This document shows, one piece after another, positions 1 through 2,027 of a DNA stretch of 13,516 nucleotides. A program made the translations under genes and the position numbers. The notes beneath the pieces were generated by a model that ran no database searches, was not told the DNA's origin, and worked only from the letters and a program-made list of their open reading frames with translations. Positions within the stretch are counted from its first letter, which is position 1; each line of letters opens with the position of its first letter. This stretch comes from a virus (taxonomy: Duplodnaviria > Heunggongvirae > Uroviricota > Caudoviricetes), in IMG/VR virus record IMGVR_UViG_2541047764_000010. One strand, written 5' to 3'.

Positions 1-828
1 CTATGCTGTTTTGATATCTACGATAACCCAGTCTTTACCACGATCATCATTGTATCGGTCGGTCATTTTTCTGGATTTATGGCCTAACAACTTTTGCGTA
101 TCCAGACCCTGTTCCCGATATAACCGTTCTGACAGAGATCGCTGCTCATGAAATGTGGGCGCAGTTCCTTGCTCCCATTTTATGCCACATTTTTCCCTGG
201 CCTTTTTAAAAGCCGTTGTCAGAGTATTTGCAGAAACCTGGTCTCCTCTGTTTGCTTGAGAGGTAGTGTGACGGTAATGGACCAGATATTTACTAACAAC
301 AGCATCCCTGCACTGAGATATAACTTCACGAAGGGTAATATTCAGAGCATCGCATTTCAGGTTAAGCGGAATAGCAAGTTTTGAACCGGTTTTTTCCTGA
401 GTAATGTGCAACATGTCGTCCCAGATATCAGAGAATTTCAAATTGCAGATATCACCTAAACGTTGTCCAGTAACAAGAGCAAGTAGCATGCCGCATTTTA
501 AATAGGGCTGCCGTCTGCTTACGCTTTCAAATATTGCCTGCCATTCGGGCAGTGACAATCTTTGGCGGTTTACTCGATTTCGCGGTTGTTTTGTTGCCTG
601 CGCTGGGTTAAATCCTGGCGGAACATGTCCTGCGTGTTGTGCTTCTTTGAAGACGTCGATCAACACCATTCTCACGACTTGCGCCATCCTGTTATGACCT
701 TCAGCCTTTACAGCATCAATTATTTCGGCAATATCAAGTGCGGTAATATCCTTGAGGTGTTGCATTCCACAATGCTCACGGAAAAGACGAATGGGTTTGC
801 CTTTTTGCCGATAGGAGTTGGGTCTTAG
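1..828 (-). pseudogene. int: Tyrosine integrase, 3' (catalytic) portion; separated from its 5' portion by an IS5 insertion
   Basis: Minus-strand ORF ending at TAG (plus 1..3). The translation has the lambda-Int-like C-terminal pattern (TGQRLGD...KFSDI, HEQRSLSERLY, LLGHKS...Y) and joins in frame to the fragment at 2024..2342 once IS5 and one TTAG copy are removed. Confidence 0.88.
825..828. repeat. Left copy of the 4-bp TTAG target-site duplication flanking IS5
   Basis: TTAG immediately precedes the IS5 left end (GGAAGGTGCGAACAAG at 829) and is repeated at 2024..2027; IS5 is known to duplicate YTAR targets. Confidence 0.85.
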
Positions 829-2023
829 GGAAGGTGCGAACAAGTCCCTGATATGAGATCATGTTTGTCATCTGGAGCCATGGAACAGGGTTCATCATGA
901 GTCATCAACTTACCTTCGCCGACAGTGAATTCAGCAGTAAGCGCCGTCAGACCAGAAAAGAGATTTTCTTGTCCCGCATGGAGCAGATTCTGCCATGGCA
1001 AAACATGGTGGAAGTCATCGAGCCGTTTTACCCCAAGGCTGGTAATGGCCGGCGACCTTATCCGCTGGAAACCATGCTACGCATTCACTGCATGCAGCAT
1101 TGGTACAACCTGAGCGATGGCGCGATGGAAGATGCTCTGTACGAAATCGCCTCCATGCGTCTGTTTGCCCGGTTATCCCTGGATAGCGCCTTGCCTGACC
1201 GCACCACCATCATGAATTTCCGCCACCTGCTGGAGCAGCATCAACTGGCCCGCCAATTGTTCAAGACCATCAATCGCTGGCTGGCCGAAGCAGGCGTCAT
1301 GATGACTCAAGGCACCTTGGTCGATGCCACCATCATTGAGGCACCCAGCTCGACCAAGAACAAAGAGCAGCAACGCGATCCGGAGATGCATCAGACCAAG
1401 AAAGGCAATCAGTGGCACTTTGGCATGAAGGCCCACATTGGTGTCGATGCCAAGAGTGGCCTGACCCACAGCCTGGTCACCACCGCGGCCAACGAGCATG
1501 ACCTCAATCAGCTGGGTAATCTGCTGCATGGAGAGGAGCAATTTGTCTCAGCCGATGCCGGCTACCAAGGGGCGCCACAGCGCGAGGAGCTGGCCGAGGT
1601 GGATGTGGACTGGCTGATCGCCGAGCGCCCCGGCAAGGTAAGAACCTTGAAACAGCATCCACGCAAGAACAAAACGGCCATCAACATCGAATCCATGAAA
1701 GCCAGCATCCGGGCCAAGGTGGAGCACCCATTTCGCATCATCAAGCGACAGTTCGGCTTCGTGAAAGCCAGATACAAGGGGTTGCTGAAAAACGATAACC
1801 AACTGGCGATGTTATTCACGCTGGCCAACCTGTTTCGGGCGGACCAAATGATACGTCAGTGGGAGAGATCTCACTAAAAACTGGGGATAACGCCTTAAAT
1901 GGCGAAGAAACGGTCTAAATAGGCTGATTCAAGGCATTTACGGGAGAAAAAATCGGCTCAAACATGAAGAAATGAAATGACTGAGTCAGCCGAGAAGAAT
2001 TTCCCCGCTTATTCGCACCTTCC
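829..2023 (+). mobile_element. Complete IS5 insertion sequence (1195 bp) inserted in the integrase gene
   Basis: Terminal inverted repeats GGAAGGTGCGAACAAG (829..844) and CTTATTCGCACCTTCC (2008..2023) match in 15 of 16 positions. The length is 1195 bp, the internal transposase matches InsH, and the element is flanked by a TTAG duplication. Confidence 0.95.
897..1877 (+). CDS. insH: IS5 transposase InsH (DDE, IS5 family)
   Basis: The translation [47 protein letters not shown]... is recognisable as E. coli IS5 InsH (326 aa from this ATG). The ORF track extends it to an upstream ATG at 861, which I regard as less likely. Confidence 0.93.
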
Positions 2024-2027
2024 TTAG
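2024..2027. repeat. Right copy of the 4-bp TTAG target-site duplication flanking IS5
   Basis: TTAG directly follows the IS5 right end at 2023. Confidence 0.85.

Follow-up and report, generated by a model that had tools for sequence, protein, structure and literature searches.

IS5 insertion in the integrase gene of an icd-site lambdoid prophage very probably abolishes excision

The window, that is, the whole 13,516-nt stretch of viral DNA analysed here, carries the early region of a lambdoid prophage whose integrase gene (int) is split by a full-length IS5 element. Because the break parts the arm-binding domain of the integrase from its six catalytic residues, Int/Xis-dependent excision has very probably been lost. 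Taken as a whole, the best explanation, to which we assign a high probability, is that IS5 inserted into int of a prophage integrated at icd, that the resulting allele is excision-null and that the event is a recent step of prophage decay.

A full-length IS5 with its target-site duplication

The inserted element (window positions 829..2023, 1195 bp) is full length and 100% identical to many E. coli copies annotated as "IS5-like element IS5 family transposase". The 16-mers at its two ends are GGAAGGTGCGAACAAG and GGAAGGTGCGAATAAG. A recount upheld the original prediction of a complete IS5 at these positions, with inverted repeats agreeing at 15/16 positions and a TTAG on each side. At the empty site, in phage Lambda_2E9 as well as in the chromosome NZ_CP030768, there is a single TTAG. 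The duplicated tetranucleotide conforms to YTAR, the target-site duplication motif of IS5 (PMC5009759). In mutation-accumulation lines of E. coli, IS5 showed the highest activity of any IS (PMC5009759). The transposase ORF is uninterrupted, and the DDE transposase appears intact by its sequence, with Pfam matches of the 338-aa reading frame to DDE_Tnp_1 (5e-35) and DUF772 (4e-21). The RefSeq version of ins5A is 326 aa long and starts at M13 (window position 897), and the gene call at the source locus is likewise of 326 aa. The features are, in window coordinates:

1..828, minus strand: int 3' part, residues 106/107-380, stop codon at 3..1; holds the remaining core-binding residues and the entire catalytic domain
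825..828: TTAG target-site duplication, left copy, directly abutting IS5
829..2023, plus strand (transposase strand, opposite to int): whole IS5, by identity to annotated E. coli IS5 copies
829-844 and 2008-2023: IS5 terminal inverted repeats, matching at 15/16 positions
861..1877, plus strand: IS5 transposase ORF (ins5A), 338 aa from the first ATG
1986..2342, minus strand: ORF of the truncated int product as it stands, 118 aa, ending in TGA
2024..2027: TTAG target-site duplication, right copy, directly abutting IS5
2024..2342, minus strand: int 5' part, codons 1-106 plus the first base of codon 107; holds the arm-DNA-binding domain and ~22 residues at the beginning of the core-binding domain
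2332..2568, minus strand: xis, excisionase of 78 aa, intact (Pfam Exc, 6.7e-6), overlapping the int start by 11 nt
8113..9012, minus strand: gene of a 299-aa protein at the rex position (phrog_4506, a PHROGs family of unknown function)

The source of the window is a 2013-era draft scaffold of 38 kb (KE700058.1), and short-read assemblies often place multicopy IS elements by scaffolding or gap filling. The IS5 copy might on these grounds be an assembly or scaffolding artefact, or be present only in a minority of the sequenced culture, and would then not be fixed in the strain. Against this, the element has both of its junctions, and the YTAR site at which it sits is duplicated perfectly over 4 bp, the signature of a real IS5 transposition; neither the window nor the locus contains a single N. 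Furthermore, once rejoined, the flanks reproduce a known sequence exactly, and a misplaced repeat would create no target-site duplication. We consider an artefactual origin extremely improbable.

The split integrase gene and its products

The int gene lies on the minus strand and, when whole, encodes a lambda-family tyrosine integrase of 380 aa; IS5 interrupts it between codons 106 and 107. Upon removal of IS5 and one TTAG, the fragments 2342..2028 and 828..1 fuse to an ORF of 1143 nt encoding 380 aa (...RLQHNEL joined to RPNSYRQKGK...), so the in-frame rejoining to an integrase of about 380 aa had been correctly predicted. Alignment with known integrases, which had been put forward as a check of that prediction, identified the reconstructed protein as lambda-type. 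Pfam placed PF09003 (Arm-DNA-bind_1) at residues 1-71 (1.7e-28) and PF00589 (Phage_integrase) at residues 200-367 (1.1e-23), and the protein aligned over its full length to lambda Int (1z1b, E=1e-55). It is also identical to WP_000741344.1, the "site-specific integrase" annotated on the uncut copy of the same DNA in NZ_CP030768. The core-binding domain corresponds to residues 85-188 (alignment to PDB 2oxo, with the boundary also obtained from 1z19), and the break falls ~22 residues inside it. The catalytic set R228, K251, H332, R335, H355 and Y364, which aligns to lambda R212, K235, H308, R311, H333 and Y342, lies entirely in the C-terminal fragment; IS5 thus divides the arm-binding domain from all six residues.

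As it stands, int does not encode a continuous polypeptide joining the arm-binding, core-binding and catalytic domains, its reading frames being of 118 aa and at best 254 aa. The 118-aa product comprises the native residues 1-106, R107 and 11 residues encoded by IS5 (KVRISGEILLG), followed by the stop. R107 is retained by coincidence, with AGG replacing AGA in a codon that straddles the int-IS5 junction. The N-terminal fragment had been predicted to run 12 codons into IS5 and stop; the read-through and the stop are as described, and the count is right to within one codon. By domain content, the remnant consists of the complete arm-binding domain, ~35 residues of the linker and core-binding domain and the 11 IS5-encoded residues. 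In the 3' part, the longest ATG-started ORF begins at M127 and encodes 254 aa, and the source locus carries a 254-aa gene call with PF00589. The neighboring xis gene is annotated as the excisionase WP_000088653.1 in identical loci and shows zero mismatches to Lambda_2E9.

Chromosomal site and attachment region

The prophage of KE700058.1 is located at the icd site, with the int stop 113 nt from the icd stop in the source locus. An origin of the window from virion DNA, which would refute an excision defect, was rejected because the source scaffold runs from int into the host genes icd-rluE-nudJ-mnmA-hflD-purB-phoPQ. The 3' end of icd is the integration site of phage 21 and e14 as well. The attL site is intact, the 277 nt leftward of the int stop being common to the phage attP. 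Three copies of the motif TTTTGGGGAA lie beside the int stop and a further one in the other arm, all of them candidate arm-type sites.

One further reading concerns these sites. Expression of the 118-aa remnant would continue, driven by the leftward promoter, which is intact, and by an int promoter placed within xis by analogy with lambda. The remnant could act as a catalytically dead competitor at the TTTTGGGGAA arm-type sites against incoming icd-site phages, in effect an accidental "integration immunity" factor. If this were true, the remnant would interfere with the integration or excision of an icd-site integrase family found in ~31% of complete E. coli genomes. We regard such an activity as a long shot.

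Identity to a plaque-forming phage

After removal of IS5 and one TTAG, the window amounts to 12,317 nt and is an exact substring of Lambda_2E9 with zero mismatches. The edited window is also exact against the chromosome NZ_CP030768 over the comparable first 6,801 nt. Lambda_2E9 is LR595860 according to the source data of Mathieu et al. 2020, who isolated phages as plaques from natural E. coli culture supernatants and from faecal viromes (PMC6969025). Because the 12,317 nt match this phage without a mismatch, the insertion is, on this comparison, clean and recent.

The gene order int-xis-...-exo-bet-gam-kil-cIII-sieB-N-299aa-cI-cro-cII-O-P-ren-ninB is common to the window and Lambda_2E9. The window and the plaque-forming phage do not differ by a single base in xis, exo, bet, gam, kil/cIII, sieB, N, cI, cro, cII, O, P and ren. 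Judged from their sequences, O and P are intact and the S24 autocleavage domain of cI is retained. These results agree with the original prediction that the xis, Red, replication and immunity genes are undamaged, there being zero differences to Lambda_2E9. Comparison with relatives lacking the IS5, which had also been suggested, showed an uninterrupted int in both Lambda_2E9 and NZ_CP030768. The comparison spans about a quarter of the prophage (the early region and attL), with 20 kb of the 38-kb source scaffold covered. The description of an "otherwise well-preserved prophage" holds for the 12.3 kb of the window through this identity, and is overstated for what lies beyond.

Rarity of the insertion and the question of selection

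The read-through 118-aa protein was found on one contig only among 153 billion gene positions (GCA_000457895.1, KE700058.1). IS5 at the same site in int was absent from 5,426 complete E. coli genomes and from 50,697 phage records, and an exact-junction scan of the GTDB representative genomes returned no identical insertion. Only two places in complete genomes cover at least 80% of the query, and in both an IS5-family element lies elsewhere (in 730V1 beside gam; in 21366 in place of the early region). The int family itself (at least 95% nucleotide identity) is present in 1679 of the 5426 complete genomes, with a median of 1 place per genome and up to 3. Approximately 63 of these 1679 carriers have no single-piece int copy covering at least 80% of the gene. 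In three other genomes, the same int allele has been split independently by an IS3-family element at about codon 57. We also considered whether int is a hot spot for IS5 and rejected this, as 12 of the 128 YTAR sites of the 12.3 kb lie in int and the IS5 copies of other strains were found in the 299-aa gene.

Zero divergence from the free phage, together with the single occurrence, suggests that the event was very recent and probably unselected, with sampling bias possible in both the lack of divergence and the rarity. It would then mark the onset of ordinary prophage decay ("grounding", a concept reviewed in PMC6379469) rather than an evolved function.

It had been proposed that the insertion stabilises defence and exclusion cargo in the host. 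An adaptive version of this idea, with the insertion selected to keep sieB, the 299-aa gene and immunity permanently in place, can draw on the argument that lysogens with excision-defective prophages are favoured (PMC6379469) and on the enrichment of IS transposases in incomplete prophages (PMC7744054). The independent IS3-family disruptions in three genomes and the ~63 of 1679 carriers without a largely complete int point the same way. However, disruption of int in a few per cent of carriers is the rate expected of neutral decay, and degraded prophages show an excess of integrase genes and not a lack of them (PMC7744054). The IS5 allele has not spread beyond one public scaffold, and we saw no sign of selection, the prophage on that scaffold being without substitutions relative to the free phage. 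The cargo label also fared poorly for the 299-aa protein, for which no defence family was found in Pfam, PADLOC or PHROGs; it has no Pfam or PADLOC defence match, the Pfam search giving only a sub-threshold DUF1206, and its gene has itself been struck by IS5 in other strains. Finally, the supposed benefit is doubtful because the loss of int would leave induction lethality in place, with cI (S24 peptidase), O and P intact, and a non-excisable but inducible lambda prophage kills its host (PMC6022878). Stabilisation of cargo must be considered speculation, and selection for it very unlikely.

Predicted loss of excision and its consequences

The reading that we favour, an excision-null allele arising by recent decay, can be laid out as follows. 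In a single E. coli isolate (GCA_000457895.1), a resident IS5 would have transposed into a TTAG site in int of a lambdoid prophage of the Lambda_2E9/1H12 type located at icd, leaving its usual 4-bp duplication. An arm-binding fragment of 118 aa remains, and the C-terminal part, which has every catalytic residue, is promoter-less. In lambda-type excision, a single Int protomer has to bridge arm-type and core-type sites together with Xis; because one protomer must span both, no attL x attR recombination is expected from the split int, predicted to be a null allele, and the prophage would be unable to excise or re-integrate by itself. That this enzyme has to be covalently intact, with its arm-binding domain joined to the core-binding and catalytic domains, is presumed from its homology to lambda Int (about E=1e-55). 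Because int is the last gene of the leftward operon, no polarity on other genes is expected.

IS5 activates neighboring genes at bgl, fucAO and flhDC. Such a role was rejected here, as the element lies inside int, the last gene of its operon.

Since the repressor, the replication genes and the rest of the early region were seen intact, derepression of the prophage by SOS induction is still expected; replication would begin in situ and the cell would die, while few or no infectious particles would be released. By analogy with lambda, the lesion would stop phage escape and curing and not host killing, because cI keeps its S24 domain and O and P are intact. Lambda prophages that cannot excise but can be derepressed are lethal on induction, a phenotype termed "Replicative Killing" (PMC6022878).

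The block might be less tight than this predicts, with excision or release at a useful rate, if another prophage supplied a closely related Int in trans, if the prophage were one copy of a tandem lysogen or if IS5 were lost precisely between its TTAG repeats. A helper Int is conceivable because the int family is frequent and can occupy up to 3 places per genome, and complementation between prophages has been documented for other functions (Asadulghani et al., PMC2669165). Nevertheless, the median number of places per genome is just 1, and the prophages Sp3, Sp11 and Sp12 of O157 Sakai, which have a disrupted int, yielded no circularised DNA despite the many other lambdoid prophages in that strain (PMC2669165). 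As for reversion, precise loss of IS5 would restore int fully, because the edited gene is perfect. IS elements, however, rarely excise precisely. Overall, we think it unlikely that the prophage escapes by any of these routes.

Implications

That IS elements disrupt prophage integrases is well documented, O157 Sakai being one example; this case is an ordinary one and the type of event is well understood. It has no bearing on open questions of phage or transposon biology. For annotation, the two int fragments and IS5 should be treated as one IS-disrupted pseudogene, and "probably non-excisable" is the appropriate score for the prophage, although its early region would pass as intact with prophage-finding tools. 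Nothing but IS5 distinguishes the 12.3 kb from the corresponding DNA of a plaque-forming phage, which makes the isolate a naturally occurring, near-isogenic int-null lysogen of a gut coliphage that is widespread. Such a lysogen could serve to gauge the effect of the loss of excision alone on induction lethality, phage release and the packaging of icd-adjacent host DNA.

Comparison with known systems

The integrase of the window shares with lambda integrase (PDB 1z1b, 1z1g and 5j0n; domains 2oxo and 1ae9) the arm-binding, core-binding and catalytic layout and the R-K-H-R-H-Y set. The two systems are also alike in that xis overlaps the int start and that repeated candidate arm sites lie beside int. 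They differ in att specificity, the prophage of the window using the icd 3' end with a phage-borne replacement of that end, and the gene of the window is split. The inserted element is IS5 of Escherichia coli itself (IS5 family, IS5 group; ins5A DDE transposase), without differences, and only the insertion site is new.

Lambda_2E9 (LR595860), 1H12 (NC_049947) and the near-identical Lambda_ev isolates from infant-gut E. coli (PMC6969025) are the temperate relatives of this prophage. In these free phages int is uninterrupted, whereas the window holds an icd-integrated copy with IS5 in int.

The Sakai prophages Sp3, Sp11 and Sp12 are, like that of the window, lambdoid with a disrupted int; they were predicted not to excise, in agreement with the lack of circularisation (PMC2669165). 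They carry many further defects, whereas IS5 is the sole visible lesion in the 12.3 kb of the window, which for this reason looks like the earliest stage of grounding. The RK+ "Replicative Killing" lambda prophages have the same configuration, with immunity and O/P/ori intact and excision blocked, the block being a predicted one for the window. The RK+ strains were built in the laboratory (int-kil substitutions or N mutants with cI857), whereas the window carries a natural IS5 insertion and its induction would proceed via the SOS response.

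The IS5 element and reconstruction of int

The interruption of int, the minus-strand integrase gene of this lambdoid prophage, was mapped to the following positions.

829..2023: IS5, 1195 bp, GGAAGGTGCGAACAAG beginning at 829 and its inverted copy ending at 2023 (script check)
825-828 and 2024-2027: TTAG target-site duplication, directly outside both IS5 ends
861..1877, plus strand: IS5 transposase ORF, 338 aa, domains DDE_Tnp_1 and DUF772
1986..2342, minus strand: present-day N-terminal product of int, 118 aa (native residues 1-106, R107, KVRISGEILLG, stop)
2332..2568, minus strand: excisionase gene xis, intact, Pfam Exc, overlapping the int start

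Sequence reading and script agree with the original prediction of a full-length IS5 with 15/16 inverted repeats and TTAG on both sides. Read on the other strand, the right end is GGAAGGTGCGAATAAG, which forms an imperfect inverted repeat with the left end (15 of 16 positions equal). Many complete E. coli genomes contain copies that agree with it from end to end (100% identity) and are annotated as "IS5-like element IS5 family transposase". The TTAG duplication is compatible with the IS5 motif 5'-YTAR-3', a motif recovered anew by Lee et al. from the IS5 transpositions in their study; 361 IS5A insertions were found in their mutation-accumulation lines (PMC5009759).

Joining the int pieces 2342..2028 and 828..1 (minus strand) gives a 1143-nt ORF of 380 aa, in which ...RLQHNEL is followed by RPNSYRQKGK.... 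A stronger test of flank joining than the in-frame ORF alone is that the window minus IS5 and one TTAG (12,317 bases) occurs in full, with 0 mismatches, within the plaque-forming temperate phage Lambda_2E9 (LR595860.1). The edited window also matches chromosome NZ_CP030768 exactly across its first 6,801 bases, the comparable part. Both of these IS5-free relatives have identical flanks and, at the same DNA, an annotated uninterrupted integrase (chromosomal protein WP_000741344.1) followed by the excisionase, so the predicted in-frame joining to about 380 aa holds. Two features effectively exclude an erroneous placement of IS5 during assembly: a perfect YTAR duplication borders both junctions, and the flanks rejoin exactly. 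The N-terminal fragment does run into IS5 and stop, the "12 codons" of the prediction being R107 plus 11 residues; R107 is kept by coincidence, as AGG replaces AGA across the junction.

Integrase domains and position of the break

The interrupted gene is a lambda-family tyrosine integrase. Alignment of the reconstructed Int, proposed as a check on the original prediction, gave the Pfam domains Arm-DNA-bind_1 (residues 1-71, 1.7e-28) and Phage_integrase (residues 200-367, 1.1e-23), as well as a full-length match to the lambda Int structures 1z1b, 5j0n and 1z1g (residues 5-378, ~1e-55). Residues 193-376 align to the catalytic domain 1ae9. Since the alignment to 2oxo, the isolated core-binding domain, spans residues 85-188, the break after residue 106 lies about 22 residues inside that domain. 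The equivalents of lambda R212, K235, H308, R311, H333 and Y342 (R228, K251, H332, R335, H355 and Y364) are all on the C-terminal fragment, whose longest ATG-started ORF begins at M127 (254 aa, with the same gene call on KE700058.1). The insertion is clean and leaves the arm-binding domain on one fragment and the catalytic residues on the other. It is very improbable that the retained arm-binding fragment would act as a competitor at the arm sites of related phages.

Integration site

Reverse-complemented, the window agrees with a locus on scaffold KE700058.1 at each of the 12,342 bases that they share (0 mismatches), and Ns are absent. Past the int stop, this scaffold continues into icd, rluE, nudJ, mnmA, hflD, purB and phoPQ; the window therefore derives from an integrated prophage, and a virion origin is ruled out by these chromosomal genes. 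The icd-side position is common to every related genome inspected, and the icd 3' end is the described integration site of phage 21 and e14. Leftward from the int stop, the attL of the prophage and the attP region of Lambda_2E9 agree base for base over 277 nt. This stretch holds a phage-borne copy of the icd 3' end, and the phage attP brings a replacement 3' end. The end of prophage/phage identity, 277 nt from the int stop, marks the crossover region. Repeated motifs were mapped nearby.

L007 (KE700058.1 locus) 12354..12391, between the int stop and icd, and L005 (locus with the phage attP) 1627..1661: three tandem TTTTGGGGAA motifs, adjoining the int stop
L005 1267: fourth TTTTGGGGAA copy, about 360 nt off, in the other arm of attP

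These are candidate arm-type Int-binding sites, and their 3 + 1 arrangement resembles the layout of P'1-P'3 and the P-arm site in lambda.

The remainder of the early region

6017..6075, minus strand: Lambda_thermo (Rfam, cIII thermoregulator element), 88.5 bits, overlapping the start of the cIII ORF
8113..9012, minus strand: 299-aa ORF between N and cI, the place of rexAB in lambda
12929..13516, plus strand: partial ORF of the nin region, leaving the window end; matches phage DNA N6-adenine methyltransferases (phrog_111, 1.8e-88) and is so annotated at identical loci

Apart from IS5, the early region is identical to the free phage Lambda_2E9, whose accession appears among the source data that accompany Mathieu et al. 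2020; that work obtained its phages by plaque isolation, both from supernatants of cultured natural E. coli strains of the infant gut and from faecal viromes. The description of an otherwise well-preserved prophage is correct for the window and proven for that stretch only. The presence of sieB was likewise upheld (Pfam SieB, 3e-25). The 299-aa protein is a full-length match to phrog_4506 (unknown function), with one predicted hydrophobic segment at about residues 100-125; neither a Pfam family above threshold nor a PADLOC defence match was found, which leaves its designation as defence cargo unsupported.

Predicted consequences for excision and induction

For lambda Int it is established that excision depends on Xis and on Int protomers bridging arm-type and core-type sites. 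Judging from the matched lambda Int structures, the split int should therefore be null for attL x attR recombination. Residual excision is improbable but conceivable, whether through an Int supplied by a helper, through a second prophage copy in tandem or through exact removal of IS5. Since int comes last in the leftward operon, polar effects on other genes are not expected. The lesion should block phage escape and curing, yet killing on induction should persist, because cI retains the S24 peptidase domain and both O and P are intact. In "Replicative Killing", a derepressed, non-excising lambda replicates in situ, forks enter the chromosome and the cell dies (PMC6022878). The proposal that the insertion stabilises defence cargo presumes a benefit to the host, whereas the classical lambda genetics of a derepressible prophage says otherwise (PMC6022878).

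Rarity of the allele and other lesions in the prophage family

An exact-sequence look-up across 153 billion gene positions placed the 118-aa read-through product on one contig, KE700058.1 of GCA_000457895.1 (38,073 bp). IS5 at this int site was absent from 5426 complete E. coli genomes, from 50,697 phage records and from GTDB representative genomes, and the allele appears private to one isolate. Of the 5426 genomes, 1679 carry this int family (nt identity of 95% or more), O157:H7 strains among them. At least 80% of int is in one piece in 1616 of the 1679 carriers; some 63 lack such a copy, and in strain 536, for instance, the piece amounts to 54%.

Other lesions were found in the same family. 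In DETEC-S586, HR5-1 and HR12-1, a 1313-bp insert independently interrupts the identical int allele near codon 57; we read it as an element of 1310 bp together with a 3-bp duplication.

L006 (NZ_CP116074.1, DETEC-S586) 2474..3786: IS3-family insert in int, annotated as IS3-family transposase with programmed frameshift

Its ends resemble those of IS629/IS1203, and RefSeq labels both int pieces at this locus as pseudogenes. In isolate AF46 (NZ_OZ546993), the 299-aa gene is split by a 1199-bp IS5 insertion at about window-equivalent 8654; S1-ISR-02-A probably carries the same insertion, given its equal 1199-bp span excess. Early regions otherwise 100% identical have an extra ~777 bp annotated as IS1B in EECO1006 (NZ_CP090319.1 2219119..2231384) and ~711 extra bp in the free phage Lambda_ev058 (LR597651.1). 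IS insertions are therefore scattered over this family (int codon ~57, the 299-aa gene, the early region), as expected under random transposition; the 12.3 kb contain 128 YTAR sites, of which 12 fall in int.

Two icd-site relatives, 730V1 (NZ_CP061764.1, O19:H7, 8540..10849) and NZ_CM190148.1 (5494..6474), lack gam or kil through cII and part of O, with IS5 and/or ISKpn26 copies adjoining the missing region. These losses look like IS-mediated immunity-region deletions, at a later stage of decay than that of the window.

Selection and comparison with known systems

The restriction of the allele to one scaffold and its zero divergence from a free phage point to a recent and unselected IS5 insertion. 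Both observations speak against an adaptive lock-in of the prophage by IS5, as does the enrichment, not depletion, of integrase genes among degraded prophages (PMC7744054); the review that introduced the term "grounded prophages" makes a case for their being selectively advantageous (PMC6379469), and lock-in is here a weak explanation. The presence of IS5 in int is confirmed, and the interpretation first placed on it is partly supported.

None of the components is new: the element is IS5 itself, the integrase has the sequence of a protein annotated in RefSeq, and the prophage that of a phage already sequenced. Events of this type, in which an IS disrupts int and grounds the prophage, are also documented. 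Indeed, Sp3, Sp11 and Sp12 of O157 Sakai, predicted to be non-excisable and with circularisation, replication and packaging signal absent (PMC2669165), offer a direct precedent as lambdoid prophages with a disrupted int.
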